Source: a virus. From it: a stretch of 64,000 nucleotides of DNA. Each line of letters begins with the position of its first letter. Position 1 is the first letter of the stretch. Location: the IMG/VR virus record IMGVR_UViG_3300032782_000007, positions 1 to 64,000 of that record. One strand, given 5' to 3'. Shown here one piece after another: positions 5,179-27,828 of the stretch. The translations under genes and the position numbers were made by a program. The notes under the pieces were generated by a model. The model had not been told where the DNA came from, ran no database searches, and saw nothing but the letters and a program-made list of their open reading frames with translations.

Positions 5179-8100
5179 GTGGGATTCATCGGCGACGCGG
5201 TAAATAGGGTCCGAGGCTGGATCCGCCAAGACAAAGAGCACACGGCGTTCCAGTTCGCCAAAGGCACGACCGCATCCGGCTACCCCAGCAGCGGAAGCGA
5301 CCTACTTCAAGCGTATGGGTATGACGTTCTCAGCGACTACCTCAAGCTTGAACAGGACCTTCTCTCCAGGTTCGTCGACTACGAGGAGATGGCCGATCAC
5401 CCTTTGATTGCCACCGCCCTGGAAATCTACGCGGACGATGCGACCCAGCACGACTACCACGTAGGTCGCCCCCTGTGGCTGAGTAGCCCCGACAAGACCA
5501 TCGAGGAGATCGGCGAAGACCTCTTCCATCGAACCCTCCGAATCGAAGAAGAGATCTGGAGTATCGCGCGGACGCTAGCCCTATACGGGCAAAATTACGA
5601 AGAGCTGCTTGTTACCGATCAAGGAGTGCGTGGACTCAACTACCTCGCGCCGCCGACGGTTCGCCGAATCGAGGGTACTCGCGGCGAACTATATGGATTT
5701 GTTCAAGATTTCAAAGGTCGGTTTGGGCACTGTTTGGCCTCCGGCTCCCGTGTTTGGGGCGTAAGCGGTCTAACGGAAATTCAGCAGTTCGACGAAGGCA
5801 AAGTCCTCGGGTACAAACCGGTAAAGGGGGTGCGTCCTGCCCTCGAATCGCCAGTCCGATCTCCGACCGCGGTTCTAGGAGGGGCGATCAAGACGCTGCC
5901 AGTGGTACGAAGGCACAGTAACGGTACACAACGCGTACTTCGAATTCGGACTCGTCACCGGGAAATCGTGGTAACAGCCGATCACCCCTTATTGGCCGTG
6001 CAGCCTTCCGAGGCCGGTCGTACGGGTGAGCCTACCTGGGTAAAAGCAAAAGACCTGCGACTAGTAAGACAGTCTGGTGGTAAGAAGAACATCGACTACG
6101 CGAAGTCGGCGAAACTTGTCATCTGCACACGAATGCCGGCGGGCCGTGTGCCGGAATGGTCAGAGATTTGGTCTGAGGACCCTGACGACTACACGACCTC
6201 TTGGGGTAGCCAACCCAAGAAGCTCACACTACCGGATCGTCCTACCCCTGAATTCTGCCGGCTTTTCGGATTTCTCCTGGGAGACGGTTGGCTCGACGAA
6301 GGTAACGTTTGCTACGCCCGCGGCGAGTATCCGGAGCTGAATGACTACTATGACGGACTGTTGAACTCGTATGGGCTTACACCTAGAATCAAAAACGACG
6401 GCGAACAGACCTGCGCGGGCGGTGTCTACCTGGCAAGACTGTTGGTCTCGCTCGGTTGGATCCAGGGTTCCCACAATAAACGGGTTCCGAGGTGGGTCTA
6501 CGGCCTCCCCGAGGAACACCGAGAGGCCTTTCTCAGGGGGTTCATCGATGCCGACGGGTGGGATCTACGGAGCAAAGCCGGACTGGTCATGCATCAGTTT
6601 GAGCTGGCAAATTACGATCTTGTCCGAGATCTGAAAAATCTTATTGACGGACTCGGCTACCACTGCGGGAATATCGGAAAACAGGTCAATAAGGTAGGCG
6701 ACACAATTCACAACCGTCGAACAGGCAAAGACGTTGTGGTCCAGACACGCGCCGACTCTTTTACGTGCTGCTATAGTGAGCTAAAGTTCGAAGCGCCGCT
6801 TGTAGCGGAGAACGTGATAAGCATCGTCGATCACGGCGAAGCAGAGGTTTTCGATCTCGAGGTCGACGATGAGGCCCATAACTTCATCGCAGACGGCGTT
6901 GTTGTTCACAATTCTCCGGCGGAATTCCAGCAGATTCTGGCTATGCGATCGGCGATGCTCCAGGGGCGATCTAACGGTCAAGGGACGATCGCCGGCATGG
7001 AACGTCTATCTGCGTTCGAGGATTGGGAGGTCGTTCACTTCCGAATCCACACCAAACAACGACGTGCCATATACGGGAGTTGCCTTGTCGGCTCAAGCCG
7101 CGTTTGGACGCCGGACGGAGTTAAAGCGATCGCGGACATCCGATCTGGAGATCGTGTGTTTACGCGCAAAGCGGGTCGTCTGCAGACTACGAAAGTTCTG
7201 GATCAGGTCTGCAACGGAGTGAAGCCTGTTTTCCGGGTGAGGACCACGCACAGAGAGATCACGCTAACAGCGAATCACCCGCTTCTGGTCGATCTCGGCG
7301 GTCACGGAAAGAACCGCTGGCGCCCAGTCGAAGAACTTAGAATCGGCGACAAGCTTGTGTTTGCGGCACGAATGCCGGAGACTCGGCCGCCGCCTCCTCT
7401 CGGGCTCAGATTACTGCGCGTCGACGACGACACGGAAGTGCGTCTTACCGCGCGCGGGGCCGCAGCTCTTCGCCAACAAACGCGAGAGAGCCACTACTCG
7501 CCGAGAGATAGCGGACTGCGACCGTTAGCCGCAAAACTGGGAATCACGCGAGCAGTTTTGGAACTTCTCTTGGAAGGGGGGTCAGCTGTTCCGCTGAAGA
7601 CGCTTAGAGCCCTGTTCGACGAAGCGGGTCTGCCGCTATTTGAGGGGAGTTGGACAAAAAAGCTTCAGGACGAGCGACTCCGGCTACCAGATTTCGTAGA
7701 ACCTTGGTTTGCGCGCCTGTACGGATTTCTTCTCGGCGACGGCTGGCTGACGGACGGCCAGGTATTGTTCGCGCTCGGCGTGGACGAAGAACGCAACAAG
7801 TTCTATGAAGGTTTGCTGGAAAAGTGTGGACTGCCGACAGCCCGTAGCGGTCGATATGACGAGCCGGGCGTAGAAACGCAATCGTACGTTAGCAGTCAAG
7901 CACTAGTCGGCGTCCTTAGGGAACTTGGGTGGATCGATGGTGCGCACTTCAAGCGTGTTCCGGCATGGGTTTACACGCTTCCGTTTGAGCACCGCAAGGA
8001 ATTCCTAGAGGGATTCATTGACGCCGATGGTTGGGAAACATACGAAGGGAAGTACCTGCACACCGAACTCTGCAACGATCCCCTCGTGCGAGACATCAAA

Positions 8101-9609
8101 GCTCTGATCGACGGCCTAGGGTGGACGAGCGGTAATGTGCGGACTCGCGGCCCTCGTACAGGCGTGATAAAGCGTTCTAACGGCAAAGAAAAACTGATTG
8201 TAGGTACCGGCGGCGCCTTGGTGACCTACCACGAGACAGTCCTCGAATCGCAGGAGTTCGGCAGCGAGGAGATCATCTCGATCGACCCGGCGGGCGAAGA
8301 GGCGGTCTACGATATTGAGGTCGCAAACAACGAGCACAACTTCATTGCCGACGGGCTTGTAGTCCACAATTCGATCCTAGACAGCGCCCGCTGGATCTTC
8401 AAACGGCTTGTGTTGCTTGAAGACACGGCGATGATTTACCGCCTTACCAGGGGCGCAGAGAGGTTCGCCTATTACGTAGACACAGGCAACCTTCCTCCGG
8501 CGGAAGCGCTCGCCTACTTGAATCGCGTACGACAGCAGAACAAGAAGAAGAAGTACGTCAACAACCTCACGGGAAAGATGGATCTCAAGCACTCCATCTT
8601 GAACCAACAGGACGATGTTTTCGTGCCGACCCGGCAAGGAGTAGATGGGACTCGAATTGAAGTCCTAGGTGCGCCTAGCTGGCAAAGCATGGAAGATATT
8701 CAGTATTTTTTGGATCAGCTGTTTGCAGCAATCAAGGTTCCGAAGAGTTACTTGGCACAGGATCAGTCGGACACTCACAGCTCGCTCAGCTCGCGTGACG
8801 TACGGTTCGCGCGGACGATTCTCAGGGTGCAGCGTGAGCTTCGAAATGGGTTTGCCAAGATCATGCGGGTCCATTTGGCGGCGCTTGGGATCGATCCAAA
8901 CCGCGTCGACTACTCGATGCACATGACGGTTCCAAGTGCGATCTTCGAGTTGGCGCAGATGGAAGTCTTGAATGCGCGCGCGGACCTTTGCGGGCGTCTC
9001 CGTGAGATGGTTTCCCTGCACTACCTGCTCTCGACGGTCCTCAAACTGAGTGACGAGGAGATCGCGCTCGTGATGCGTCAGCGCGAGGAAGAAGCCGACG
9101 AAGAGGCGACGATTCAGGCGCGCACGCAGAGCATGATCCAGAAAGCGGTGGCTGCGGCGGGAATGGAAGGCCAAGCGCAGGGTCAGATCGACACGACGCA
9201 GGCGATGAACGCGGCTGGAATGCAGACCCCGCAGCAGCAACAGCAGCAGGCGCAGGCTGCCCAGATGGCGCAACAGCAACAGGCTCAGGCGCAGCAAGCT
9301 CAGGCGGCGCAACAGGCCGCGCGAAAAGAGAGTCGAATTGGGGGCCCGCTGATCCGGATCCGGGACGGCGTTCGACCGGTGGAGTATTACGGGCTCGAGC
9401 GGAGACTGTTTGAGGGGGAAGCAAAGTCTCGTGCGGACCGATCGCGGCTCGAGTCGAAGCTGGATAGGCTTGGATTTACGAGTCAGCAGATGCAGGAGAA
9501 ACTACGCGCGCGGTCCCATGAGGATCGAATGATCCACTCGCGGCTGCGGGAGCTGGGGGGACTGGTGCGGGATCTCAACATCGAGGTTCGAGGTCTCCGC
9601 CGCTACTAA
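5179..9609 (+). CDS. T4 gp20-like portal protein with two inteins
   Basis: Motifs LLEDTAMIYRLTR, YYVDTGNLPP, GTRIEVLG, EDIQYFLDQLFAAIKVP; about 652 aa after splicing; Gln-rich C-terminus. Confidence 0.92.
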   Translation: MGFIGDAVNRVRGWIRQDKEHTAFQFAKGTTASGYPSSGSDLLQAYGYDVLSDYLKLEQDLLSRFVDYEEMADHPLIATALEIYADDATQHDYHVGRPLWLSSPDKTIEEIGEDLFHRTLRIEEEIWSIARTLALYGQNYEELLVTDQGVRGLNYLAPPTVRRIEGTRGELYGFVQDFKGRFGHCLASGSRVWGVSGLTEIQQFDEGKVLGYKPVKGVRPALESPVRSPTAVLGGAIKTLPVVRRHSNGTQRVLRIRTRHREIVVTADHPLLAVQPSEAGRTGEPTWVKAKDLRLVRQSGGKKNIDYAKSAKLVICTRMPAGRVPEWSEIWSEDPDDYTTSWGSQPKKLTLPDRPTPEFCRLFGFLLGDGWLDEGNVCYARGEYPELNDYYDGLLNSYGLTPRIKNDGEQTCAGGVYLARLLVSLGWIQGSHNKRVPRWVYGLPEEHREAFLRGFIDADGWDLRSKAGLVMHQFELANYDLVRDLKNLIDGLGYHCGNIGKQVNKVGDTIHNRRTGKDVVVQTRADSFTCCYSELKFEAPLVAENVISIVDHGEAEVFDLEVDDEAHNFIADGVVVHNSPAEFQQILAMRSAMLQGRSNGQGTIAGMERLSAFEDWEVVHFRIHTKQRRAIYGSCLVGSSRVWTPDGVKAIADIRSGDRVFTRKAGRLQTTKVLDQVCNGVKPVFRVRTTHREITLTANHPLLVDLGGHGKNRWRPVEELRIGDKLVFAARMPETRPPPPLGLRLLRVDDDTEVRLTARGAAALRQQTRESHYSPRDSGLRPLAAKLGITRAVLELLLEGGSAVPLKTLRALFDEAGLPLFEGSWTKKLQDERLRLPDFVEPWFARLYGFLLGDGWLTDGQVLFALGVDEERNKFYEGLLEKCGLPTARSGRYDEPGVETQSYVSSQALVGVLRELGWIDGAHFKRVPAWVYTLPFEHRKEFLEGFIDADGWETYEGKYLHTELCNDPLVRDIKALIDGLGWTSGNVRTRGPRTGVIKRSNGKEKLIVGTGGALVTYHETVLESQEFGSEEIISIDPAGEEAVYDIEVANNEHNFIADGLVVHNSILDSARWIFKRLVLLEDTAMIYRLTRGAERFAYYVDTGNLPPAEALAYLNRVRQQNKKKKYVNNLTGKMDLKHSILNQQDDVFVPTRQGVDGTRIEVLGAPSWQSMEDIQYFLDQLFAAIKVPKSYLAQDQSDTHSSLSSRDVRFARTILRVQRELRNGFAKIMRVHLAALGIDPNRVDYSMHMTVPSAIFELAQMEVLNARADLCGRLREMVSLHYLLSTVLKLSDEEIALVMRQREEEADEEATIQARTQSMIQKAVAAAGMEGQAQGQIDTTQAMNAAGMQTPQQQQQQAQAAQMAQQQQAQAQQAQAAQQAARKESRIGGPLIRIRDGVRPVEYYGLERRLFEGEAKSRADRSRLESKLDRLGFTSQQMQEKLRARSHEDRMIHSRLRELGGLVRDLNIEVRGLRRY
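5731..6912 (+). mobile_element. Portal intein 1 (394 aa, LAGLIDADG)
   Basis: CLASGS...TADHP...GFLLGDGW...GFIDADGW...HNFIADGVVVHN/S. Confidence 0.93.
7081..8370 (+). mobile_element. Portal intein 2 (430 aa, LAGLIDADG)
   Basis: CLVGSS...TANHP...GFLLGDGW...GFIDADGW...HNFIADGLVVHN/S. Confidence 0.93.
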
Positions 9610-12094: not shown

Positions 12095-13696
12095 ATGACC
12101 ACCACTGAAACGACCGTAAAGACCGCGAAAGCCCCGAAGCAGCCCAAACAGCTGCTGGTGGACTCATGCTGGGTCCAGCTCCAGTTGGTGGAGGGGCAGC
12201 ACGAGGGGAAGACCATCGTGCGCGGCGAGTTCGCCAAGTGCGGGATTGCAACGGAGAACAAGCGCGTTTATCCGGGGAAGCTCTGGGAGCGGGAGTTCAA
12301 TCGTCTGCGAAAGACGATGAGCGCGGGCTCCTTGTTTGGAGAGAGCGATCACCCGAGCGATGGTCGGACGCAGCTTTCGCGTGTCTCGCACAAGATCACC
12401 AATCTTGAAATCAAAGATGGCGTGGTTGTCGGCGAGGCCGAGATCATGGATACCGCACGCGGTCGAGATCTCAAAGCGATTTTGGCGAGTGGGGGGAAAA
12501 TCGGAATCAGCTCTCGCGGTCTTGGTTCGGTTCGTACGAACGAGCGCGGCGAGGACATCGTTCAGGACGACTACCGGCTTGTGACGTTCGACTTCGTTGC
12601 AGATCCGGCCGACCAGGACGCGTTTCCGGGAGTTTTCTACGAGCATCGAGAGGAACGGATGGAGCAGGACCAAGAGGCGAAGCAGGCGCAGGAATTCGCG
12701 GCGGCCGTTGAGCAGGCCAGGAAAGAGAGCCGCGAGGGAGCCGAGGCGGCGCTTCGTGAGGAGTTCGCCAAAGAGATGGTCACGCGCCTCTCGGCGTTTC
12801 GAGCGGAGATCGCGGAACAGATCCGGGGCGAGCTGCTTTCGGATCCCTCGGTAGCGGGGGCGAAGGTCGCCCTCGAGCGAGTCAAGGACGCTCTTCGACC
12901 GTTCGTGCTTCCTGAGGACGCGAAAATCGTTGGCGAGCAGAAGGACAGCGAGATCGGTCAGCTGAAGAAGATGCTCGCGGAGCAGTCGCTGAGGCTGAAG
13001 ACACTCGAGGAGGAGAAGTCCAACCTCGAGAAGGTGGCCAAAGAGGCCGGCTACAAGTTCTACCTCGAGCGCCAAATCGGTTCGGATCCGGATGCGGAGC
13101 TTATCCGCAAGCTCCTCGGTGACGTAACGGTTTTCAAGACTGGCGCGGAGCTGCAGGAGAAGATCGAAGCGGTCCGTACGGACCTGCAAACCAAGCGGGC
13201 AGAGGCGGCGAAGCTGACCGAGGAGATCGAGGCGGAGAAGCGTGCCGAGCGGGATCGCAAGGAGAAGGAGCGTGTCCGCGCGCTCAAGCACGAGGAGTCA
13301 CTCCGCGAGGAAGTGGCCCAGCTCCGCGAGGCTCTTGCGAAGTCGTACCGCGTGAACCAGGAGTTCGAAGTTCTCTACTACGCGGAAGAGCGTCTTCGCA
13401 ATCATCCGCGTGCCGCCGAGATCCGGCCGCTCGTGGAGAACTCGACTCTCGAGTCGAAAGAGCAGATCGACAAGATTCTGGACGGATTCCGTGCAGCACC
13501 GCTGCAGTCGGAGGAAGTCGCGAATGTCAGGGCGCGCGTGCGCCAGCTTACCCAGGGGGGTCATGGACCGGACGCAATCGAGGAGGCAAAGCCTGCTCGG
13601 CCGCGGTCGGAAAATGGAGGATTTTTCGAGCGTTTGGGAACAACCAGGGAAGAGCAGCGCGGCCTGATGGGCTTCGCTCCCACCCGAACGAAGTGA
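12095..13696 (+). CDS. Prohead protease (T4 gp21-like) fused to a coiled-coil scaffold
   Basis: NKRVYP, GESDHP, GISSRGLGS, DFVADPA, then a long E/K/R coiled coil. Confidence 0.9.
   Translation: MTTTETTVKTAKAPKQPKQLLVDSCWVQLQLVEGQHEGKTIVRGEFAKCGIATENKRVYPGKLWEREFNRLRKTMSAGSLFGESDHPSDGRTQLSRVSHKITNLEIKDGVVVGEAEIMDTARGRDLKAILASGGKIGISSRGLGSVRTNERGEDIVQDDYRLVTFDFVADPADQDAFPGVFYEHREERMEQDQEAKQAQEFAAAVEQARKESREGAEAALREEFAKEMVTRLSAFRAEIAEQIRGELLSDPSVAGAKVALERVKDALRPFVLPEDAKIVGEQKDSEIGQLKKMLAEQSLRLKTLEEEKSNLEKVAKEAGYKFYLERQIGSDPDAELIRKLLGDVTVFKTGAELQEKIEAVRTDLQTKRAEAAKLTEEIEAEKRAERDRKEKERVRALKHEESLREEVAQLREALAKSYRVNQEFEVLYYAEERLRNHPRAAEIRPLVENSTLESKEQIDKILDGFRAAPLQSEEVANVRARVRQLTQGGHGPDAIEEAKPARPRSENGGFFERLGTTREEQRGLMGFAPTRTK
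13172..13183. repeat. Palindrome copy 4 (intragenic)
   Basis: aagcgGTCCGTACGGACctgc. Confidence 0.95.
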
Positions 13697-13738: not shown

Positions 13739-15247
13739 ATGTCTACAGAAGCACGTGAAATATTGGCAGAGCAGCAGGCGCGGACGATCGCCGACAAGAG
13801 CTACGTCCGAAGCCTTGTTCAGAAGTGGGGCGAGTTTCTCGAGGGGATTCCGGACAAGACGGAACAGCAGCGCTACACGCTCGGCGTGGCGGCGATCCTC
13901 ATGGAGAACCAGTGCCAGCACCTCTTGACGATGAACGAGGACACGCGAACGGCCAACGTTGGTTCGTTCACGAAGTTCATCTTCCCGATCCTGCGCCGGG
14001 TCTTCCCGAACCTGATCGCGAACGAGATCGTCTCGGTACAGCCGATGACGGCTCCGACGGCGGCGGTCTTCTACCTCGACTACGTCTACGGCACGACCAA
14101 GGGCCAGACGCAGGCGGGAAACGTCTTCCCGCGTGACTTCGACCGCAACTACTCCTCGGAGTACGTGCAGGGCGAAATCCTTTGGACGGGTGACGGTACC
14201 CACGGTGGTGGTGCGGGCACGGCGATCTCGCTGAGCCTCGCGTTCAACCCAGTTCGTCCGCTCAACACGACGCTCGGCTTCTCCTGCGTGGTTCAGGAAG
14301 AGGACTCGACGGGCACGGCGGTCCAGGTGGCGACCGACAACGGAACGGGTGGATTCACCTTCGTTCCGGCTGGCGGATCCACCGCGGGCACGATCAACTA
14401 CTCGAACGGCGCGATCTCTGGATTCAAGTTCCAGAACGCTCCGGCGAGCGGAAACAAGGTCCGAGCCTACTACTACTACGACGGGGAGCTGAACCAGAAG
14501 GTTCCGCAGATCAACCTCGACGTCAAGCAGGCGCCGGTTCAGGCCCAGCCGCGTCGACTGAAGGCGCTCTGGTCGGCAGAGGCCGCTGAGGACCTCCGCG
14601 CGTTCCACGGGATCGACGCTGAGACCGAAATGGTTTCGGCTGTCGCCCAGGACATCGCGCTCGAGATCGACCGTGAGATCGTCAACGATCTCTTCGCGGC
14701 CTCGACGGGAACGACCGCGTCGTTCGACCGTGTACCCCCGGCGGGTATCGCGGAGATCGACCACCTCCGCGCGATGATCACGCAGATCTCGACGGTGTCG
14801 AACCTCATCCACAAGAAAACGCTGCGTGCGCCCGCGAACTTCATCGTCACGTCCCCGGACGTGTCGGCGCTGATCGCGCAGCTCACCACGCACGGTGACT
14901 ACCGTCCGCTCTGGGTCAGCGGCGGCGAATCCCCGTACGGCCCGGCAGACATGCCGCGTCCGCTCACCCAGCACGGGCAGTTCGGTATCTACAAGACCGG
15001 AACGCTCATGAACAAGTGGATGGTCTACGAAGACCCGTTCTTCACGCGCGATCAGATGCTGATCGGGCTCAAGGGCGGAAGCTTCCTCGACGCCGGATAC
15101 GTCTGGGCGCCGTACATCCCGCTTCAGGTGACTCCGACCTTCCTCGATCCGGCAGACTTTTCCTTCAGGAAGGGCCTCCGCACGCGTTACGCTAAGAAGT
15201 TGCTTCGAAGCGAATTCTACGGCCAAATGCGAATTCTTAATCTTTGA
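13739..15247 (+). CDS. Major capsid protein, T4 gp23-like
   Basis: RRVFPNLIANEIVSVQPM, RRLKALWSAEAAEDLRAFHGIDAETE, ALEIDREI, DAGYVWAPYIPL, GLRTRYA. Confidence 0.95.
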   Translation: MSTEAREILAEQQARTIADKSYVRSLVQKWGEFLEGIPDKTEQQRYTLGVAAILMENQCQHLLTMNEDTRTANVGSFTKFIFPILRRVFPNLIANEIVSVQPMTAPTAAVFYLDYVYGTTKGQTQAGNVFPRDFDRNYSSEYVQGEILWTGDGTHGGGAGTAISLSLAFNPVRPLNTTLGFSCVVQEEDSTGTAVQVATDNGTGGFTFVPAGGSTAGTINYSNGAISGFKFQNAPASGNKVRAYYYYDGELNQKVPQINLDVKQAPVQAQPRRLKALWSAEAAEDLRAFHGIDAETEMVSAVAQDIALEIDREIVNDLFAASTGTTASFDRVPPAGIAEIDHLRAMITQISTVSNLIHKKTLRAPANFIVTSPDVSALIAQLTTHGDYRPLWVSGGESPYGPADMPRPLTQHGQFGIYKTGTLMNKWMVYEDPFFTRDQMLIGLKGGSFLDAGYVWAPYIPLQVTPTFLDPADFSFRKGLRTRYAKKLLRSEFYGQMRILNL

Positions 15248-20177: not shown

Positions 20178-22620
20178 ATGAATGAGGATTGCAAACACGC
20201 ACGCGTAGCGCCAGAAGTGTGCGATCAGACTCTCGGCGTGTACTGCCTGGACTGCAACGAGGGGCTTGTCGTGTGCTGGATGAAAGAGCATATTCCCGAG
20301 TCGCTGTGGAATCGTGCGTGTACGAACGACGTAGACGCGGTTCCGTGCGAGCGTGACCGGGACAATTACTGCGCTATCTGCGGGGAAGAGTTCTCCTTAT
20401 GAGCAGGAAACCCGATCCCCAAAAGGCCCCTGCGTTCGTCTCATGCTCCTGTTACGAGGAACGAGGAGAGCGCGTTGAGTGCCAGTCCTGCTACGAGGAG
20501 CGGCAGCTCGAGGCAGAGTCATACACAGAGGAGCTGGACGAAGACCAGCGCACCCCGGAGGTTCGCATAGAGAAGGTGCTCGCCTGGGCAGGCTTTCGCA
20601 GCACCGAAACGAACCACGAAGCGATACAGAAGGTGGCGCGGGCGATCCATGACGACGCCTACCGGGCGGGCCAGCACTCGCGCCGGCGCCGAGCGACGAA
20701 CCGAAGCTCTCCGTACCAACCGAAAAAGCTGCCACGGATCTAAAGGTCCGGAGAACCCGCCGCGCGATGCATCCCTATCGAGAGCTTCCGCCGACCCACC
20801 TCTACCTGGTGAGTTACAAACGAAGTCTTTCGTTTGCAGCTCCGTACAACGTGATGCGATGCGAGAGACTTGTCTGGGCTCGAGACGACCCTGATGCTCT
20901 AACGCAAGTCATCGCAGATGGCGCGGAAGACGTCAGCTGCGTGACTGTCAGGAAAATGCGATGAAGTATGACGTACCGCGAGACAAAAATGGGGTCAAGC
21001 TTGAGGTGGGGGATCGCGTTGAGGACGTGAACGACGCGTGGCCGCACCGGACCAGATACGGAACGATCCTTCTCGTCTACGAGGACTGCGCCGGAGTAAT
21101 CGACTGTCGGGTTCTTTGGGACGAGGCCGCTGAGTACACGCCGATTCACGGAAGTGCTGTTAGGAGACTGCCTCCGCCAAATCGCTTGATTCGGACGCTC
21201 GCGCGGATCGGACTTGTGACGGTCCGGAGTAACCGGACGGTACGTTGGCCCTTTTACGTAGCCCCGCGCTGGATGTGGGGTCCTTTGTGGCGTCTAGAAC
21301 CGGTGTTCGGACTCTTCCGTAACAGGCCGGACGTCATGAAATGGATTCCTGGGCGTCTTCTCCCGCTCCGATGGGGATTCCGGTGCTGGATCTTCGAGGT
21401 GGGGGATCGAGGGTCGGCTCAGTGGTCGCGTCGGGATCAACGGCTCGTGATCTGATAAAATGTTACCGATGAACGACGACTACGAGGATCCACAGGCCTG
21501 TAGTGATCCCTCGATGATCCTGACGCCCGAAGAGTGTCTGGCACTAATCGAGTCGCGCCCAGCAGCATCGCGCGCTCTAGGCCGTTACGAGGGGTTCGCG
21601 ATGGCCTCGGGGCTTATAGGGATGGCTCTGGCGATCCGGGAGCTGTACACGTGGGCCGACGATCCGAGCGCGGACGCCCCGTGTCCGGACTGTCACGCGC
21701 CCGAGGGTAAGGCCTGTCGCAATTGGTGTACGTTCACAGGGTGACCCATGCAGGTAGAGATGTCGCTGGCAGAGCTACTGATGAACGCCATTGGTGCGGG
21801 CCACGTACACGGCGTGCAGTTCAAGCGCGGGGCCAGCGACGACAGGAAGACCTTCGAGGACCTGCAGCGGGTGATCAGCAAACGTCTCGACGGGGCACGA
21901 ACGGTCGCAGTCGAGGAGGCGCTTCGCGAGCTACACGAGAAGCATCCCCCGTTTCGACTGCTCGCGGAGGTTCGCCGCCTACGTAAGGCGCTTCTCCAAA
22001 TCCCGACAGGCCTAGCGTGCCGGCTTTGCGGAAGGATGCCTACTCATGCAGTCACGCTCTGCGAGAGCCGCATGCTCTGCGAGAGCTGCATCGACGATTT
22101 GACTGAGATCGGAAGTGGCGGCAAGTGACAATCGGCCGCCAACTGTGGTAACGAAAGAAGGATGTTCGATCCGACAATCGAGGCCGCGCTGCATAAGCTC
22201 TACGAGAAGGTTGTTCTCACGGACGAAGACTGGGAACGGCTTGGAGTGGAGATGCGTACTGAGGGCGCAGGCGCAGTATCCGCGCGCATTGACCGACTTG
22301 TGACGGCGTTCACGGCTGTCAATGCGCCTCCGATTCCGGGCCTAAAGCCCTCTTTAGCCGCGGTTATCGAGTATGACCGCGTGACTCGGCTGGAAGCCCA
22401 AACGGCTGTCTATAAGAGCGAGAAACAAGCGTTCGAAGACTGGTCGAACACATTCCAGAATGAGAACGTAATCGACGCTCCCTGGGAAGCCAACCGGATG
22501 GGATTGTTGATTGCGTGGCAGCTTTCGCGTCTCAACAAGAACCTCGAAGATCTCAAGAACATACTCGATCTCCGCTGGGAAGCTAACCGGATGCTCGAGA
22601 TCATGCGAGAGCCGAAATGA
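20178..22620 (+). other. Run of small hypothetical ORFs (20178-20402, 20399-20743, 20767-20964, 20961-21455, 21460-21744, 21748-22128, 22162-22620)
   Basis: Tiled or overlapping ORFs, several with CxxC pairs; no function recognised. Confidence 0.55.
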
Positions 22621-22985
22621 GCGCCGGACGGCCTTCTATGGGCGAGCGCGCCTTTCGCGCAACTATCGTGGTTCCAGTACGATACGAACAGCGCGAACGA
22701 GCGATGGCTTTGGCGGCCACTCACGGGCTCTCTGTGGCGCAGGTAATGCGAATTGCCCTTGAGACACTGACCGAGCAGAAATTGGAACAAGCGCTGAAGA
22801 CTTTCTCCGCGGCGGAGAAACTTAGGCGATCCGATGAGCGATCGAAAACTGTATCTGTTCGAGAGCGGGAATCCCGACTGGGTCGTCGCGTACGACGTCG
22901 AAGACGCTCGCAACCTCTACTGCGCGCACCTCGGCGAGGACGTCGACGACTACGACGTTCACGAGTGGAAGCAGCTCGCGGATGA
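22617..22985 (+). CDS. Probable ribbon-helix-helix (CopG-like) regulator
   Basis: GRP...TIVVPVRYEQRERAMALAATHGLSVAQVMRIAL; 3' tail overlaps the next gene. Confidence 0.6.
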   Translation: MSAGRPSMGERAFRATIVVPVRYEQRERAMALAATHGLSVAQVMRIALETLTEQKLEQALKTFSAAEKLRRSDERSKTVSVRERESRLGRRVRRRRRSQPLLRAPRRGRRRLRRSRVEAARG

Positions 22986-23121
22986 TAAGGCCGCCCTGTA
23001 CTGGTTGGATCCGGAGACGGGAACGCTTACCGACGAGTATGACGGGGTCCTCACCACGTTGACCGCGCGCGAGGTGGTTGAACGATTCGGGCGCGGCTTC
23101 GTGGCGTCGGTAGACTTCTAA
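22834..23121 (+). CDS. Small acidic hypothetical protein
   Basis: 95 aa, rich in D/E and aromatic residues. Confidence 0.7.
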   Translation: MSDRKLYLFESGNPDWVVAYDVEDARNLYCAHLGEDVDDYDVHEWKQLADDKAALYWLDPETGTLTDEYDGVLTTLTAREVVERFGRGFVASVDF

Positions 23122-23124
23122 GAG

Positions 23125-23153
23125 TTGACACTCCGTGCGGGCGCTGGTAGAAC
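23125..23153 (+). promoter_or_regulatory. Sigma70 promoter
   Basis: TTGACA-17-TAGAAC with an extended TG. Confidence 0.7.
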
Positions 23154-23159
23154 CGATTA

Positions 23160-23325
23160 TGGGATTCTTGGGTCCCTGAGAGGGTTTGGGCGCGCCATCA
23201 CCGCGTCTGAGACGCCTTCCGAAGCGGGTTGATGCTCGTGCCGGGACCAAGAAGGACCTGTTTCTTTTGGTGGCGCTGCCAGGATCGGGTGATGGCCGAG
23301 CTGGTGGTGCCCGAAAGAAGCACGA
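23160..23325 (+). ncRNA. Candidate structured 5' leader RNA
   Basis: Stems 23165-76/23243-53, 23194-202/23288-96 (alternative 23192-200/23268-76), hairpins 23203-15 and 23307-23. Confidence 0.5.
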
Positions 23326-24003
23326 ATGGTCAACAAGAAGAAAAAGAAGGCCCGCGATCTGTCTAAAAAGTCCGGGATGTCCTACCAGGCGGCGGTGAAT
23401 GCCTTGGACGCGAAGTCCCCGGCAAGGGAACCGAACCCTCCGATCTCGGCGGCCATACCCATTTTGTGGGGGCCTCCGCTTCCACACGAAGAACTGGAGA
23501 GACGAGCGCTCGATCTTCGAACGTTAGATGAGGTCTTGGCTGACGAAGATAATATCATCGAACAGCGCCGTCCAGGCGCTAGAGCCGACGTCGAGGGGGG
23601 TGCGCTGCGGTTGGCCTCAGATATTGGAAAAGCATGGGATGAGCGGCACGTCCGGAAGCTTCGCGCAGAAGTGCTCCAAGGGGAAAAGGCACTAGAGTTG
23701 GTATGCCACGGTCGGCCCACCAGCACGCTAGTCGCGACCTTTTTCCGAGGCTCGGCTCGCGATCCTCTTCTTCTCCAGGACGAAAAGCGAACCTACGTCG
23801 CCCTGGAAGTCCTTCCAGAAATGCTGAGGCGCGCTGTAGAGAGCGAGATCGGTTCGCAGAGACGTAGCCGCGAAGATCGAACACTTCAGTGGGTGGAGAA
23901 AGAACTACTAGGGCGCCAGCTCATACTTCCAGAGGTGGAAGTAGGAAATCTCGAGAAGGCCGTACCGACGTACCTTTCGGCCTGGGCGAAAGACCCGGAG
24001 TAG
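23326..24003 (+). CDS. Hypothetical protein with a basic N-terminal helical domain
   Basis: MVNKKKKKARDLSKKSGMSYQAAVNAL. Confidence 0.7.
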   Translation: MVNKKKKKARDLSKKSGMSYQAAVNALDAKSPAREPNPPISAAIPILWGPPLPHEELERRALDLRTLDEVLADEDNIIEQRRPGARADVEGGALRLASDIGKAWDERHVRKLRAEVLQGEKALELVCHGRPTSTLVATFFRGSARDPLLLQDEKRTYVALEVLPEMLRRAVESEIGSQRRSREDRTLQWVEKELLGRQLILPEVEVGNLEKAVPTYLSAWAKDPE

Positions 24004-24050
24004 GCGGCCTTGCGTTGCAAAGCCAGTTTCATGCGTGATACACTCGACGC

Positions 24051-24437
24051 ATGTCTCGAGAAATCCGTTTGGAACTGGTTTTGCGCGCTCGAACCGAGGA
24101 GGGCAAGCCTCTAACGGTTGCTGAGGCCGCGCTCCCTCTGACCCTGCGCGCGCCACAAGCAGGCCCTGCGCAGACGAAGGGCGACGGTGAAGCGGATTTG
24201 GCCGGCGCGATCGAGGCTGCGCTCGCAGAGGTTTCTGCGGCGGCTCTTGCGGGACCGTTGATTCGCAGTCTCCGTGTGAATGGGGGCGCGAGCGAGATCA
24301 CGCGTAGTGGGCGAACGGTTTTCTACGTCGACGTGGGAGACATGGAGCCTGGCGAGGCGTCCCGTTACGTCGAGAGTGTCAGGGACGCGCTTGTTCTGCG
24401 CGACGGTGAGGTCATTCAAGCAACGAGGTCCAAGTGA
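24051..24437 (+). CDS. Small protein carrying a portal-like motif
   Basis: RTVFYVDVGDMEPGEASRYVESVRD is 11/25 identical to portal RFAYYVDTGNLPPAEALAYLNRVRQ; TTGCAA-18-TACACT lies 6 nt upstream. Confidence 0.7.
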   Translation: MSREIRLELVLRARTEEGKPLTVAEAALPLTLRAPQAGPAQTKGDGEADLAGAIEAALAEVSAAALAGPLIRSLRVNGGASEITRSGRTVFYVDVGDMEPGEASRYVESVRDALVLRDGEVIQATRSK

Positions 24438-24784
24438 GCAAGATTATCCGTACGTATCGTCTTCCGCTCCCCGTGTTCAAGCAGGGCGACGATCTTGCGT
24501 ACAAGATCAAGGTCAACAATGGCAACCTGGCAGAAGCCTTTCGAGATCAGGCGGACGCTTACCAGGACGCCTCGGAGATCTGTCGTAAGCTCGCAGGGGT
24601 GTGCGCGGAGACACCGGGCATGGATGTGATCGCGGACTGCCACATGGTTCAGATCGACGGGCCTCCGGAGACGCTGGCGGTGCTCGCAAAAGACGGCTTC
24701 GTTGAGATTGAGGAGTTCGACGATGACTGGGACGAGGATTCTGAGGACGGTCTGGATCCTGATGACGACGGGCTCGACGTCTGA
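24434..24784 (+). CDS. Hypothetical protein with a highly acidic tail
   Basis: Ends EEFDDDWDEDSEDGLDPDDDGLDV. Confidence 0.7.
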   Translation: MSKIIRTYRLPLPVFKQGDDLAYKIKVNNGNLAEAFRDQADAYQDASEICRKLAGVCAETPGMDVIADCHMVQIDGPPETLAVLAKDGFVEIEEFDDDWDEDSEDGLDPDDDGLDV

Positions 24785-25029
24785 TGAAGCAGTGCGAGTG
24801 GTTTACTAGTCCCACGGATCGCTGCCCGAATCCCGCAGTAGAACGCTGGTCGCGGAAGGGCGATCTGGACTCGGTGGTGGCCGCGGAGAAGCACTGGTGC
24901 GGCGATCACAGTCTGGACTCGAAAGCTCGTGCGGAGTGGTGGGAGCGCGTGAGTACGCTTGCGATCGGACATCTTGCGAATCGGTCGCAGGTGCTGACGA
25001 ACTTCGATGTTCAGGCCATCGACGAGTAA
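24784..25029 (+). CDS. Small Cys/His hypothetical protein
   Basis: C..C...WCGDH; TGATG overlap. Confidence 0.55.
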   Translation: MKQCEWFTSPTDRCPNPAVERWSRKGDLDSVVAAEKHWCGDHSLDSKARAEWWERVSTLAIGHLANRSQVLTNFDVQAIDE

Positions 25030-25055
25030 GCGGTTATCTGGTAGGTTAGGCGTGA

Positions 25056-25832
25056 ATGTCTGAGGGAATTCTCGATGTTTTGCAGGAGCTGAAACAGCTC
25101 GGGGCGATTGGCCCTGCGCCCGCGCCCTCGCCTGCGCCGATCCCGCCTTCGCCGCCTTCGCCGCCAGAGCCGCCGAAAGAAGATACACGCGGTCCGCACA
25201 TGATCGAGCTGTGCGAACGGGCGATGGCGACCCTTCAGAAAATGGGGCGCGCGCAGGAAGAGGGTCAACGAGATCTCTTTGCGGTATTCGAGGAGATGCG
25301 CGATCTCTGGGCGGACATCGCAACGGCCGCGCCGACTGAAACGGTTACCGTGGACGTCGAGGAGTCGAAGGCGAAAGGTCCGCACGGACTTTCACCGCCA
25401 GTTGAAACCTCGGCGACGGAGATCGCGATCCCGGTTGTAGAGGGACCGATCGAGGTTCCCCAGCAAATCGAGCAGGTCATGCGCGGGCTCGCGCCCGAGG
25501 TGTCTGCGATCGACGAGCTTCTGGTGAAGATGCAGCAAGAGGGGCACAAGTTCCCTCGTTTGGAGACAATCGAAGATGACGAAGAGCTTTATCCGGAACC
25601 CGGCAGTGTCGGAGGTGGTACTCCCTGGCGTGGGGAAAGTCCGCAACCAGGTCCTAACGGGCCAGCAGTACGAGAAGTACGTGCCGAAGTTCCTCATCGA
25701 GGTCCCGGAGTCTCAGGCGACTCCGTTGGAGCAGACAGCGCCCTCGCACGCGCCGCAGCCGCTCACCGAGCCCGCACCGATGCCCCAGCCGCTCCCGGAG
25801 GAGCAGCGGAAGAAACCGGAACCGCTCACTGA
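25056..25832 (+). CDS. Pro-rich acidic hypothetical protein
   Basis: -10-like TAGGTT 8 nt upstream; the 3' part overlaps the next ORF. Confidence 0.55.
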   Translation: MSEGILDVLQELKQLGAIGPAPAPSPAPIPPSPPSPPEPPKEDTRGPHMIELCERAMATLQKMGRAQEEGQRDLFAVFEEMRDLWADIATAAPTETVTVDVEESKAKGPHGLSPPVETSATEIAIPVVEGPIEVPQQIEQVMRGLAPEVSAIDELLVKMQQEGHKFPRLETIEDDEELYPEPGSVGGGTPWRGESPQPGPNGPAVREVRAEVPHRGPGVSGDSVGADSALARAAAAHRARTDAPAAPGGAAEETGTAH

Positions 25833-26013
25833 GGTGATGCCGCTAGGCGACCCGCCCGGGCCAGAACCGCTCGTCGAAGGGTGGACCGATCGCGGATTCG
25901 GCGCGCTTCCCCCGGAGGCAGCGCCAGACGCTGTCAGCTTGGAAAGCAAAGCGGTATCCGAGTCGAAGGGTGCCGACAAGGCGAAGTCCAAGTCAAAGGG
26001 CAAAGGGGCCTGA
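25576..26013 (+). CDS. Hypothetical protein (small N-domain plus low-complexity tail)
   Basis: GGAG RBS; repeated PLTE/PLVE/PLEQ. Confidence 0.6.
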   Translation: MTKSFIRNPAVSEVVLPGVGKVRNQVLTGQQYEKYVPKFLIEVPESQATPLEQTAPSHAPQPLTEPAPMPQPLPEEQRKKPEPLTEVMPLGDPPGPEPLVEGWTDRGFGALPPEAAPDAVSLESKAVSESKGADKAKSKSKGKGA

Positions 26014-26191
26014 TGTTTCGACGCGAAGACGATTTCATCTGCGGGAAGTTTACACCGGAGACTGCGGACACTCCGGACTTGGCGTTGCGGCTTGTACGGC
26101 CGATCGCGTACTTTACCGCTCTAGGCTTGACGGGGACGAGGGTGTTCGGGCTCGAGTCCATGTCTGCCGAACCTACTGACGTTGCGGAGTA

Positions 26192-26515
26192 ATGAGCCGT
26201 CCCAAAAATGGCATGTCCCCTATCCACCCAGGGGAACTGCTTCGAGAGGACTTCCTCGTCCCCCTCAACCTGAGCGCGAGGAGACTCGCGCTCGCGCTCG
26301 GGGTCCCACCGAACCGCGTCACCTCGATTCTAAACGAGGAGCGCGACATTACGGCCGACACGGCCCTCCGCCTCGCTCGCGTCCTCGGCACCTCGGCTGA
26401 ATTCTGGATGAACCTACAGAAGACGTTCGAGCTTCGCACCGCGGAGCGTGTCCTCGCAAGGAAGTTGACGAAACTCAAGCCATTAAGTTTGCTGTCCATG
26501 CATTCAAAGGGATAG
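26192..26515 (+). CDS. higA: HigA-family antitoxin (orphan)
   Basis: PIHPGELLREDFL...ITADTALRLARVLGTSAEFWMNLQ. Confidence 0.92.
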   Translation: MSRPKNGMSPIHPGELLREDFLVPLNLSARRLALALGVPPNRVTSILNEERDITADTALRLARVLGTSAEFWMNLQKTFELRTAERVLARKLTKLKPLSLLSMHSKG

Positions 26516-26519
26516 AACG

Positions 26520-26855
26520 ATGCCGCACTACGCAGATGGAACTCCCGCCAAGGTTGGCGATCAGGTTTTCGGACAGTTCTTCAACACGCCTGGTGTTCGA
26601 GCGGGGACGATTATCTCGATCACGCCTGGACACGAGCAGTGCAACGCGATGATTCAGTTCACCGAAGCTGTGATGTGCCCTGAGGGCGGCAGCATCGACC
26701 ACACGATGTTTCCACGAATGGCGATTCGTGACGATCTTGGAGTGCCTCTCCAACGAGTGGTGCGAGGAGAGGCGCACGGAGCTTCAGGGCCGACGTACGC
26801 TCTATTTGCCTGCGCCGACTACTGCGACACGAACAAGCTGACTCGACTCGCCTAA
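26520..26855 (+). CDS. Hypothetical protein
   Basis: MPHYADGTPAKVGD; tiled with neighbours. Confidence 0.65.
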   Translation: MPHYADGTPAKVGDQVFGQFFNTPGVRAGTIISITPGHEQCNAMIQFTEAVMCPEGGSIDHTMFPRMAIRDDLGVPLQRVVRGEAHGASGPTYALFACADYCDTNKLTRLA

Positions 26856-27040
26856 TGTGCGAGGAGGTCGGATGCGCACTTGAGGCGTATCGCACGCTGC
26901 GAACACAACTCCGGGAGTTGCTTGCGGATGGCGGAGCAGATTCCGAGGCCGAAGAAGATCTGTTGAATCAGCTGGATATCGCCTGGTGGGCGATGACTAT
27001 CCAGAACCGAGAACTGCTAGAAAAAGAGGCCCCGGTCTAA
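26855..27040 (+). CDS. Small hypothetical protein
   Basis: TAATG overlap. Confidence 0.5.
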   Translation: MCEEVGCALEAYRTLRTQLRELLADGGADSEAEEDLLNQLDIAWWAMTIQNRELLEKEAPV

Positions 27041-27093
27041 ACAGATCGGCCGAGGTTGGGGCGTATTTCGCGGTACCCTAAAGGGAGCCGAAT

Positions 27094-27828
27094 ATGCCCA
27101 CCTCGCAAAACAGTTTGATGACGGCGGAGCAGATCCAGCAGTGGGTGCTTCGACGCCTCGGCGGCTCGTTTCTCAAGGTAGAACTATCCCAGGACGAGCT
27201 GGACGACGCCATTGAAGGCGCCCGTAGATGGTTCAGCGCGCGAAAAGGCGTGAAGAGGCAGGCGTACGTGCCGTTTTACTCCGGCCAGACCACGTACACT
27301 CTCGACCCTCAAATAGACGTAGTGCTCGACGTGAGCTTCCCGGTTCCGTCGATGGACATCTCGCTCATCTTCTCTCCGTACATCCTGCAGGACGAGAAGA
27401 TCCCGTACGACGTCTTCGCGGCGCCGTCCTCGATGGGTCTCTACTCGACGTACACGCAGACCATGCAGTACATCGACGAGGCCAAGCGGATCCTCAACGC
27501 AGAGCCTGATTGGCGGCAGGAGGATCGCACTCTGTACATTTTCCCGATCCCCAAGACGAACGGGAACATGCTTCTCGACTACAAGAGCTTCGATTTCACG
27601 ATCGAGCAGCTAAGCGAACGCGATCACGACCTTGTAAAGCGCTACGCGCTAGCATGGGCCAAACGGGACGTGGGTCGTATCCGCAGCAGGTACGCGAGTT
27701 ATCCCGGCGCACAGGGCCAGACCGAATTGGACGGGGATAAGCTCCTCGAAGAGGCAAAAGAGGAGATGGAGCTGCTCGACAAGGAGATCGCGTGGAGCGC
27801 GATGCCGAGCGGGTTCCTCACGGGCTAA
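27094..27828 (+). CDS. Neck protein, T4 gp13-like
   Basis: RLGGSFLKVELSQDELDDAI; YALAWAKRDVGRIRSRY..PG...LDGDKLLEEA. Confidence 0.85.
   Translation: MPTSQNSLMTAEQIQQWVLRRLGGSFLKVELSQDELDDAIEGARRWFSARKGVKRQAYVPFYSGQTTYTLDPQIDVVLDVSFPVPSMDISLIFSPYILQDEKIPYDVFAAPSSMGLYSTYTQTMQYIDEAKRILNAEPDWRQEDRTLYIFPIPKTNGNMLLDYKSFDFTIEQLSERDHDLVKRYALAWAKRDVGRIRSRYASYPGAQGQTELDGDKLLEEAKEEMELLDKEIAWSAMPSGFLTG

Follow-up and report, generated by a model that had tools for sequence, protein, structure and literature searches.

In bacteriophage T4, the clip of the portal protein gp20 comprises residues 279–358, and four residues at its tip (N291, M292, R295 and K296) contact gp17, according to the available text of Sun et al. 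(2015, PMC4493910). The same text reports that the gp20 substitution M292I blocks the start of packaging, and cites a synthetic gp20 peptide (residues 288–311) that bound gp17 and inhibited packaging. It also describes the T4 clip as a β-sheet to which one subunit contributes one strand and its neighbour two, and as the sole main-chain contact between subunits. Other proteins recognise the clip as well. For example, the available description of SpbK in Bacillus subtilis has this host immune sensor binding the clip helix of the SPβ portal YonE, with the dodecamer needed as a platform (PMC12847820), and Avs4 and Avs11 are described as sensing portals (PMC13581612, 10.1101/2025.11.14.688446), Avs4 recognising portal monomers. 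Among other small phage-related proteins, Gpi of the Vibrio satellite PLE binds the large terminase of ICP1 and blocks packaging (10.1101/2024.04.22.590561), and T4 gp40, a head vertex assembly chaperone, is a small accessory protein tied to portal assembly. In titles and abstracts, the scope of our literature phrase search, no portal mimic, decoy or clip-like phage protein was found.

The stretch of viral DNA analyzed here (64,000 nucleotides; hereafter, the window) encodes on its plus strand, at positions 24051–24437 including the stop codon, a protein of 128 amino acids with a pI of 5.1, as taken from the ORF list and its translation. We refer to this protein as P0003. Its N-terminal part (residues 1–81; 24051–24293, plus strand) was predicted by AF2 to contain a β-hairpin (residues 4–14 and 20–33) and two helices (46–59 and 64–75), and had no match in Pfam, PHROG or NCBIfam. 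The last ~45 residues (82–128; 24294–24434, plus strand), delimited by hhalign and hereafter called the mini-clip domain, were predicted by AF2 to form a strand (89–94), a tip (G96–P100), a helix (100–113) and a second strand (120–125). In the AF2 monomer, obtained from an 11-row alignment with a mean pLDDT of 79.7 and a pTM of 0.62, both clip strands and the N-terminal hairpin lie in one globular sheet, so that the protein appears as a single compact domain. No membrane segment and no basic tail are present in P0003. An N-terminal ELVLR motif and the start position are common to P0003 and two full-length relatives, P0007 (115 aa) and P0010 (121 aa), which indicates that the frame and start of P0003 are coding; identity to the full-length relatives is 36–38%, with the motif retained.

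The claim that this gene has its own promoter was not supported by a sigma-70 scan, which returned no sites between positions 21500 and 27500. A sub-threshold promoter-like element, picked after the site had been seen, lies at 24015–24044 on the plus strand; it consists of TTGCAA (24015–24020), an 18-nt spacer ending in TGA, and TACACT (24039–24044), scores 8/12 by hand count, and its TGn-TACACT end lies 6 nt before the ATG. Such an element would set +1 at the A of the ATG, and the resulting mRNA would be leaderless. The 13-mer around its –10 was not recurrent (16 matches at up to three mismatches, compared with 19.7 expected), and no Shine-Dalgarno sequence is visible upstream of the ATG. A downstream ORF of 116 aa with an acidic C-terminal tail (24434–24784, plus strand) starts at a GTG that overlaps the P0003 stop (GTGA), and is therefore probably co-expressed with P0003. 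Searches of Pfam and PHROG assigned this ORF to no significant family.

We examined the resemblance between P0003 and the portal protein of the same phage. The earlier note had described a gap-free alignment of positions 24312–24386 (plus strand) with portal positions 8461–8535 at 11 of 25 identical residues. This alignment was reproduced, with P0003 residues 88–112 on portal residues 1095–1119; the shared letters it listed in the two 25-mers are all present, and the first R is an additional one. BLASTP of P0003 against the portal gave 11/24 identity with an E-value of 2e-4 for the single comparison. However, at least 11 of 25 identities somewhere on the portal were also reached by 5 of 300 shuffled P0003 sequences, and at least 11 identities by 6 of 362 ORFs that lie in the window outside the portal and measure 60 aa or more, namely P0003 and five others, one of the six having 13. 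The bare identity count is near chance, and it is the location of the match together with the profile evidence given below that, as far as sequence comparison goes, makes it real.

The sole Pfam match of P0003 was PF07230 (Portal_T4; E 0.0015; score 17.8 bits, cut-off 22.9), in which residues 85–111 fall on profile positions 202–229 of 433, and its sole PHROG match was phrog_213, 'portal protein' (E 0.0044). A tblastn search of 50,697 phage records matched 38, all weakly (E 0.6 or worse); among the best 20 rows, 17 fell on portal-annotated genes and the other 3 on genes annotated 'hypothetical protein' that occupy the corresponding place in sister phages. We then compared profiles by hhalign, using nine portal clip segments chosen by patterns outside the motif, which makes the test less biased. 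P0003 alone aligned to these segments with Prob 93.8 and E 1.7e-7, and four relatives found with HMMER, taken together, with Prob 96.8 and E 2.8e-10, compared with Prob 0.1–0.2 for reversed controls. For the whole mini-clip family the values against portal segments were Prob 98.7 and E 3.1e-16, with P0003 residues 82–128 on columns 36–102; in this alignment, 19 portal residues are skipped between the helix and the second strand. Conversely, the family profile (A3) recovered the portal clip at E 4.8e-10 when the record of the phage was searched in all six frames, and its sole match in the T4 genome was gp20. The profile match proposed earlier as a check is thus significant for the clip, both by hhalign and by the PF07230 scores of the relatives.

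Foldseek with the AF2 model gave no matches at E ≤0.001 in the PDB and none in BFVD, where the weak rows (E 0.1–0.4) include three portals and one uncharacterised phage protein of 114 aa. The ESM Atlas offered no usable feature match, its model of P0003 being poor (pLDDT 0.45) and all TM values <0.5, and phmmer of P0003 against PDB sequences gave a best E-value of only 0.42.

We also considered whether the resemblance is accidental, or whether P0003 is not a gene at all. The shuffled sequences and the five other window ORFs that reach the same identity count, the Pfam score of P0003 alone, which lies under the cut-off, and the missing Shine-Dalgarno sequence and scan-level promoter are in line with such a view. 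The controlled profile tests with their reversed counterparts favor homology, relatives exceed the Pfam cut-off, and full-length homologues exist; we regard this already disfavored explanation as very improbable. Profile comparison of sequences shows the C-terminal end of P0003 to be homologous to the outer half of the clip of T4-type portals, with first strand, exposed tip, helix α6 and second strand, here as a free-standing unit. The earlier description of a small protein with a copy of the portal clip motif therefore holds on profile evidence, and widens into a family.

The portal segment of the window and T4 gp20 residues 282–306 (6uzc numbering) gave a gap-free alignment, and the window portal as a whole was aligned to the gp20 structures 3ja7 and 6uzc with an E-value of 2e-23. 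Because gp20 282–306 lies inside the clip as delimited in the available text of PMC4493910 (279–358), the assignment of the motif to the terminase-docking part of gp20 is supported. The 25-residue stretch of P0003 (residues 88–112) is equivalent to gp20 282–306, with 9/25 identical residues by hand count, and by the same gap-free mapping through the window portal, P0003 residues 94–117 are the positional equivalent of the gp20 peptide 288–311, so that the stretch covered by this peptide is present. That peptide is, in the description available, the only experimental precedent for the stretch acting alone; P0003 differs from it in being natural, folded, gene-encoded and from another phage clade. 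At the contact positions, T4 N291 and M292 correspond to D97 and M98 of P0003, with M kept at the M292 position, whereas R295 and K296 are not conserved and correspond to G101 and E102; in the phage's own portal their counterparts are A and E. The contact chemistry of T4 is therefore not simply transferable to P0003.

Like the gp20 clip (PF07230; 3JA7, 6UZC), the mini-clip domain is predicted to have a strand, a tip, a helix and a second strand, and it keeps the tip residues G, M/L, P and A. In contrast to portals, which exceed 500 aa, P0003 has 128 aa, and its N-terminal 80 residues are unrelated to the portal. Measured against the portal proper of PF07230, it misses the family cut-off, with the clip segment present. 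The wing, stem and crown have no match in P0003, where the hhalign alignment covers residues 82–128 only, and the inner, DNA-facing clip loop (the R338/K342 region in T4) is missing from the alignment. Lacking these three domains as well as the loop, P0003 cannot form a channel.

The portal gene of the phage (5179–9609, plus strand; 1476 aa as encoded) matches PF07230 at E 4.8e-59, in addition to Intein_splicing and LAGLIDADG_3, and carries inteins at 5731–6912 and 7081–8370, leaving a spliced product of ~652 aa. Its own clip-tip motif (residues 1095–1119; 8461–8535, plus strand) was located by the alignment and by the A3 profile match. The large terminase, a candidate partner of P0003, is encoded at 1134–4421 on the plus strand (1095 aa as encoded; phrog_9, E 1.2e-4; HNH and Intein_splicing matches); its intein with the HNH match occupies residues 116–526, inside the P-loop, and it is 47–55% identical over ~530–595 residues to portal-adjacent ORFs in most of 26 matched related loci. 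A complex prediction for P0003 and the terminase C-extein (residues 527–1095, 14-row alignment), run without controls, gave no answer (score 0.01, mark 0.32) and is counted neither for nor against binding. A head-tail adaptor is encoded at 27094–27825.

The motif of P0003 is not closest to that of its own portal. Its identity to the own portal (11/24) ranks 25 among 28 distinct portal motifs, whereas portals of related phages reach up to 16/24. The string FYVDVGDLPP occurs in 12/21 portal relatives, which were picked by patterns outside the motif, whereas the window portal has YYVDTGNLPP. Only two records hold both a portal and a mini-clip for this comparison; in the other (G010), the own portal ranks 4 of 28 portal motifs for the first mini-clip. 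The copied clip motif stands, but the closer fit to other phages' portals argues against plain mimicry of the own portal. The proposal in the earlier note that such a mimic titrates terminase or a portal sensor is kept here as a hypothesis.

P0003 is a member of a rare family of small proteins of phages, the mini-clips, which apparently has not been described before; more than 20 such small ORFs were found in viral contigs, some of them tandem, membrane-anchored, basic-tailed or fused. As a family criterion we propose an ORF of 46–268 aa with only a partial PF07230 match at approximately profile positions 202–244, a description that includes P0003. All 11/11 members fit this description; PF07230 was matched by each of them at E ≤0.1 (best, 1.5e-11), two relatives with tandem motif copies lying above its cut-off (E 1.5e-11 and 2.3e-11), and it was the sole family of 8/10 further small ORFs. 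A phmmer search of 1.84 billion representatives, which uses neither a word index nor a motif pattern, found the relatives P0006, P0007 and P0009; two other matches, P0005 (globin repeats) and P0008 (a repeat adhesin of 5454 aa), were rejected after reading their sequences as chance matches inflated by repeats. In the G010 record, a diverged mini-clip without FYVDVG was recovered by profile. A first-pass word-indexed homologue search recovered only the query, and scans with the family alignment A4 yielded 408 pattern matches in metagenomes and 92 in genome contigs, with none confirmed in either. Among GenBank phages, a search with the relative P0013 found one uncultured record of 595 kb only. 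NCBIfam gave no consistent family for the mini-clips, and 0/11 members matched PADLOC, a library of defence rather than anti-defence proteins.

The members differ considerably in architecture. The domain occurs with N-terminal extensions of 60–170 aa, with a CxxC-type N-terminus, and with C-terminal second copies in proteins of 239–247 aa; two members (L013, L016) have a C-terminal hydrophobic stretch of membrane type, and others (L042/L043, L045 and P0013) have basic tails. A second-strand motif, hydrophobic-P-hydrophobic-R, is present in P0007, P0010, P0015, P0016 and the longer forms, and is aligned in P0003 as VIQATR, without the P. Besides the buried strand, the exposed tip, G-[DQSN]-[LM]-x-P-x-[EDK]-A, remains near the portal consensus even in distant members. 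Conserved synteny was seen only within two groups (L042/L044/L045 and L041/L046), neither of which has any in common with the window. Nine of ten related, incomplete phage records lack any small clip copy, and a gene of the P0003 type is therefore regarded as accessory. In one phage record of 436 kb, judged 85% complete, the small protein was the only PF07230 match and no full portal was seen.

As the best explanation, we tentatively propose, with somewhat less than even confidence, that P0003 is a soluble clip surrogate that occupies a clip-binding partner, the terminase being the first candidate. P0003 retains the part of the clip on which, in T4, first the terminase and later the neck is docked, and it would occupy whichever protein normally binds the portal clip, so that the start of DNA packaging would be delayed or blocked. 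P0003 could be directed at the motor of its own phage and serve as a brake on the timing of packaging; the motors of co-infecting relatives are the more likely target, because P0003 resembles the clade consensus clip more closely than it resembles the diverged clip of its own phage. Retention of the motif at the full-length identity given above and the tandem copies in some relatives point to selection. Gpi would be the closest parallel in effect, although it is satellite-encoded, the available text on it mentions no portal likeness, and the comparison with P0003 is one of descriptions. Against the surrogate stand the sporadic occurrence of the gene, the 436-kb record without a full portal, and the absence of a significant Foldseek match. 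Moreover, because the AF2 monomer packs the clip strands globularly, the tip is perhaps not presented as on a 12-fold ring, and a P0003 monomer may bind the pentameric motor only weakly. A broader version, which we consider rather unlikely as a whole, is that mini-clips form an undescribed class of phage-encoded mimics of the portal docking tip, spread through T4-type and huge phages, in which P0003 would jam the motors of rivals with a consensus clip, its own portal tip having drifted, or would blind immune sensors that read the clip (SpbK/Avs).

The portal itself may instead be the partner. Given the inter-subunit β-sheet described for T4 (PMC4493910), pairing between a free clip module and a portal subunit, assembled or not, is conceivable, and P0003 might then chaperone or nucleate assembly, or cap the clip and hold off the terminase or neck proteins until the proper moment, as a functional analogue of gp40. 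The membrane-type stretches and basic tails of some relatives fit a membrane-linked role in portal assembly at least as well as they fit a surrogate. The annotation of T4 gp40 is that of a membrane-associated protein, and its C-terminal tail is basic; furthermore, the L042 gene lies between a gp41-like helicase gene and SSB/UvsX-like genes, much as T4 gene 40 lies between uvsX and 41. However, this positional analogy concerns one locus, P0003 itself lacks both the tail and the membrane segment, and absence from nine of ten related partial records is odd for an assembly factor. Homology between mini-clips and gp40 was rejected (hhalign of A3 against gp40, Prob 0.2; gp20 as the only T4 match of the profile). 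We consider a portal-directed role unlikely. We assign a similarly low probability to the possibility that the clip module has taken on an unrelated function, for instance as a small oligomerisation or scaffold domain, or is a decaying relic of a partial portal duplication. The short strand-helix-strand unit does occur in many contexts, AF2 folds P0003 as one compact domain, and no neighborhood is conserved across the different subfamilies; but the near-consensus exposed tip of distant members speaks against this reading, as do tandem duplication and the identity among full-length relatives against a relic.

P0003 could also be an anti-defence decoy, in which a monomeric clip surface would occupy a putative host clip sensor without offering the 12-fold platform for clustering and firing. 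Clip-sensing defence exists in SpbK, and portal sensing in Avs4 and Avs11, as far as the cited descriptions go; P0003 is one of a cluster of small accessory ORFs, among them a HigA-like HTH gene, its occurrence among relatives is sporadic, and its consensus-like motif alongside a diverged own portal tip would fit an arms race. SpbK, however, is a host sensor of the real portal ring, and a phage-encoded clip decoy is not part of its available description, nor did the phrase search of the literature provide a precedent. A free clip could equally trigger a receptor such as Avs4, described as sensing monomers, and the PADLOC result, with the scope of its library as stated, adds nothing in favor. 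We judge a decoy of this kind to be quite improbable, and retain the soluble clip surrogate as the preferred account.

The packaging motor and the neck dock on the portal clip, as does at least one host immune sensor. No earlier case is known in which a phage has copied this hub as a separate protein, and a natural clip tip that stands by itself and has its own gene would be the first. The old in vitro result that a gp20 peptide blocks T4 packaging thereby becomes a directly testable biological question. If mini-clips are decoys, they would represent a new layer in phage–phage competition or in the evasion of structure-sensing immunity, and also a small natural scaffold for terminase inhibition; if they aid portal building, they would indicate a route of portal assembly without a gp40 homologue. 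In either case, mini-clips are at present unnamed or appear as partial 'portal' matches (PF07230, phrog_213), by which genome annotation can be misled.

P0003, a 128-residue acidic protein, is encoded by the ORF at positions 24051–24437 (+). As the earlier note described, this protein and the portal of the same phage share 11 residues over a gap-free stretch of 25 residues, and a BLASTP comparison of this single pair gave 11/24 identities (E 2e-4). Because at least 11/25 identities somewhere on the 1476-residue portal were also reached by 5 of 300 shuffled P0003 sequences, and at least 11 by 6 of 362 window ORFs (≥60 aa, all frames) outside the portal, P0003 among them, this level of identity alone is insufficient for a claim of homology. 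The highest count in this chance test, 13/25, came from the prohead protease ORF (12095–13696) and is probably attributable to a low-complexity region of the portal. A Q/A-rich run is located near the portal C-terminus (window ~9080–9200, portal residues ~1300–1345) and inflates chance identity counts against this protein.

We accordingly relied on profile comparisons. Portal_T4 was the sole Pfam family touched by P0003 (E 0.0015, profile positions 202–229), with a score of 17.8 bits that falls under the cut-off of 22.9 bits, and the portal family phrog_213 was its sole PHROG match (E 0.0044). When 50,697 phage genomes were searched in translation, P0003 gave 38 weak matches with identities of up to 14/25; among the 20 listed, 17 lay on portal-annotated genes and 3 at the same place on unnamed genes of sister phages. 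The profile evidence indicates that the match between P0003 and the portal is real. When an alignment of 11 small proteins was compared with 26 portal segments using hhalign, 47 columns were matched (Prob 98.7, E 3.1e-16). Both sets had been gathered via the motif and were thus biased, and the comparison was repeated with four proteins found by HMMER only and nine portal segments retrieved with patterns outside the motif; the match remained significant (Prob 96.8, E 2.8e-10; P0003 alone, Prob 93.8, E 1.7e-7). Reversed alignments gave Prob 0.1–0.2, and T4 gp40, the portal-assembly chaperone, showed no homology signal against the small-protein profile (Prob 0.2). In a six-frame search of its own record, the small-protein profile recovered the clip of the phage's own portal (E 4.8e-10). 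On the profile check suggested in the earlier note, these results uphold the clip identity, and homology of P0003 to the portal clip is highly probable.

Over this stretch the window portal could be aligned without gaps to T4 gp20 (3JA7/6UZC), which places the motif at gp20 residues 282–306, in the clip, as had been proposed. Residues 82–128 of P0003 align to the end of stem helix α5, the first strand, the tip, helix α6 and the second clip strand, with 19 portal residues skipped. The gp20 clip (residues 279–358) is described as the attachment site for the large terminase gp17 and later for the neck, with a three-stranded sheet formed between neighbouring subunits; the gp17 contacts proposed at its tip are N291, M292, R295 and K296, whose alanine mutants abolish packaging, M292I blocks packaging initiation, and a gp20 peptide comprising residues 288–311 binds gp17 and inhibits packaging (PMC4493910). 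The equivalent of this peptide is P0003 94–117, in which D97-M98 are located at N291-M292 and G101-E102 at R295-K296.

AlphaFold2 with an 11-row alignment predicted, fairly confidently, a single domain (mean pLDDT 79.7, pTM 0.62) composed of an N-terminal hairpin, two helices, a strand (89–94), a helix (100–113) and a strand (120–125). The predicted order of the C-terminal elements matches that of the clip. Fold searches with this model returned no significant match, portal or otherwise, which is unsurprising for a piece of ~45 residues that forms no independent domain in portals; as a result, the structural likeness stays a predicted one. P0003 was rejected as a portal proper, as its score lies under the cut-off of the family and only one of the four domains of a portal is represented. 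The alignments indicate that it is a homologue of one portal sub-domain in a new free-standing architecture: the strand-tip-helix-strand piece is that of T4-type portal clips, whereas P0003 stands alone and lacks the DNA-facing loop. No model in Pfam, NCBIfam, PHROG or PADLOC treats such proteins, which we call mini-clips, as a family of their own, and no description of stand-alone portal-clip proteins was found in the literature searched.

An exhaustive HMMER search of 1.84 billion representatives yielded six proteins at E ≤0.001, including the P0003 query; two of these, a protein of globin repeats and a repeat-rich adhesin of 5454 residues, were dropped as relatives, since repeats inflate their scores. 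One relative, P0007, is a full-length homologue of P0003 (36–38% identity) with the same N-terminal ELVLR motif, and two other small proteins carry the motif in two tandem copies and exceed the Portal_T4 cut-off (P0006, 43.5 bits, E 2.3e-11; P0009, 44.1 bits, E 1.5e-11). A profile search extended the set to 11 proteins, all of which (11/11) matched PF07230 at E ≤0.1; this was also the sole Pfam family in 8/10 further such small ORFs. As expected, portals predominated in three scans of viral contigs, accounting for 11/13 loci, 29/32 loci and 74 of the 80 loci kept. The small ORFs found by scanning included L003 (46 aa), L041 (76 aa), L044, L045 and L046, as well as L013 (2179–2424, 81 aa) and L016 (4221–4457, 78 aa), in which a long hydrophobic C-terminal stretch of ~25 residues resembles a membrane anchor; both lie in conserved synteny with a gene of phrog_11058, a group of unknown function. 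The protein encoded by L042/L043 (256 aa) is extended at length on its N-terminal side and has a basic tail. Its mini-clip is C-terminal in L043 (9506–10276), which belongs to a 436-kb huge-phage record (G013) in which no full PF07230 portal was detected; the gene is flanked there by gp41-like helicase and SSB/UvsX-like genes. On contigs related to G013, L044 (11165–11884) and L045 (11145–11888) hold a second protein of 239–247 aa with a clip-like C-terminus. That the word FYVDVG is nearly invariant in these alignments is due in part to retrieval by words and patterns.

Mini-clips were not found in the bacterial and archaeal genomes scanned; in the T4 genome the small-protein profile matched gp20 only, and GenBank phages gave one match only, in an uncultured 595-kb record. 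Small copies occurred in 1 of 10 related partial records, and the mini-clip gene is accessory. That record, G010 (175 kb), comes from a relative of the window's phage and holds two different mini-clip ORFs ~38 kb apart (L147, 4001–4198, –; L148, 3873–4166, +). One has a strand and helix only, followed by a basic tail; the other has all three strands but is diverged and lacks the word FYVDVG.

The source record (73,239 bases, judged linear, ~43% complete) is mostly covered by the window, nearly all genes of which lie on the + strand. The large terminase gene (1134–4421, +) contains an intein of 411 residues (1479–2711) that carries an HNH endonuclease and interrupts the Walker A P-loop immediately ahead of TGGIGSGKT; intein-free (672–711 aa) and intein-bearing (1049–1106 aa) terminases both occur in related phages. 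The T4-type portal gene (5179–9609, +; PF07230 E 4.8e-59) is interrupted by two inteins with LAGLIDADG homing-endonuclease domains (5731–6912 and 7081–8370; 394 and 430 residues), the second of which stops 34 residues ahead of the conserved Y-V-D core of the clip motif. Several related portals (L024–L030, 1375–1383 aa) also appear to bear inteins at the same site. The protease gene is followed by those for the major capsid protein (13739–15247), an endonuclease, ~10 kb of small ORFs without family, and the head-tail adaptor (27094–27828). P0003 is encoded in this small-ORF block, as is a HigA/XRE-type helix-turn-helix protein (26192–26515; PF01381 E 7.1e-10). The next ORF (24434–24784) starts with a GTG that overlaps the stop codon of P0003 (GTGA); the 116-aa product of this translationally coupled gene has a C-terminal tail that is very acidic, matched no family, and could be a P0003 partner or a DNA mimic.

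Whereas the clip-motif observation of the earlier note stands, its claim that P0003 has its own promoter is not supported by a scan of 21500–27500, which gave 0 sites. A weaker element, TTGCAA-18-TGnTACACT, ends six bases 5΄ of the ATG, and no ribosome-binding site is visible ahead of it. Together these features make a leaderless transcript possible but unproven.

P0003 retains the outward docking piece of the portal and has lost all the parts that a channel requires, the DNA-facing loop among them; most economically, it would bind a partner that normally binds the clip. Candidate partners are the terminase, a neck or adaptor protein, a host sensor and, via the inter-subunit sheet, the portal itself. 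We tentatively rank a terminase-directed surrogate first, by analogy with the T4 peptide experiment and with Gpi, a small satellite protein described as binding TerL and blocking packaging (10.1101/2024.04.22.590561). However, P0003 does not conserve the basic residues that make the T4 contact, G013 carries a mini-clip without a detectable PF07230 portal, and some relatives, being membrane-anchored or basic-tailed, resemble gp40. A factor directed at the portal is unlikely, as is some other use of the clip module, and chance resemblance, which the identity counts alone would allow, is very improbable given the profile matches. An immune decoy is quite unlikely but conceivable, because host defences that sense portals are known: SpbK is reported to read the clip helix of the assembled YonE portal (PMC12847820), and Avs4 and Avs11 to sense portals (PMC13581612; 10.1101/2025.11.14.688446). 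No example of a portal-clip decoy was found in the literature searched.

The P0003 motif matches portals of related phages at up to 16/24 identities and its own portal at 11/24, which ranks 25 of 28 distinct motifs. FYVDVGDLPP occurs in 12 of 21 portal relatives retrieved without the motif, and the window portal reads YYVDTGNLPP. These comparisons suggest that P0003 keeps the consensus tip of the clade and that the portal of its own phage has drifted. An aim at rival phages or a host sensor would thus fit better than a brake on the phage's own motor, although the T4 portal also carries the DTGN variant. In P0003 a known domain would take on a new, free-standing form, for which a function in mimicry is plausible.
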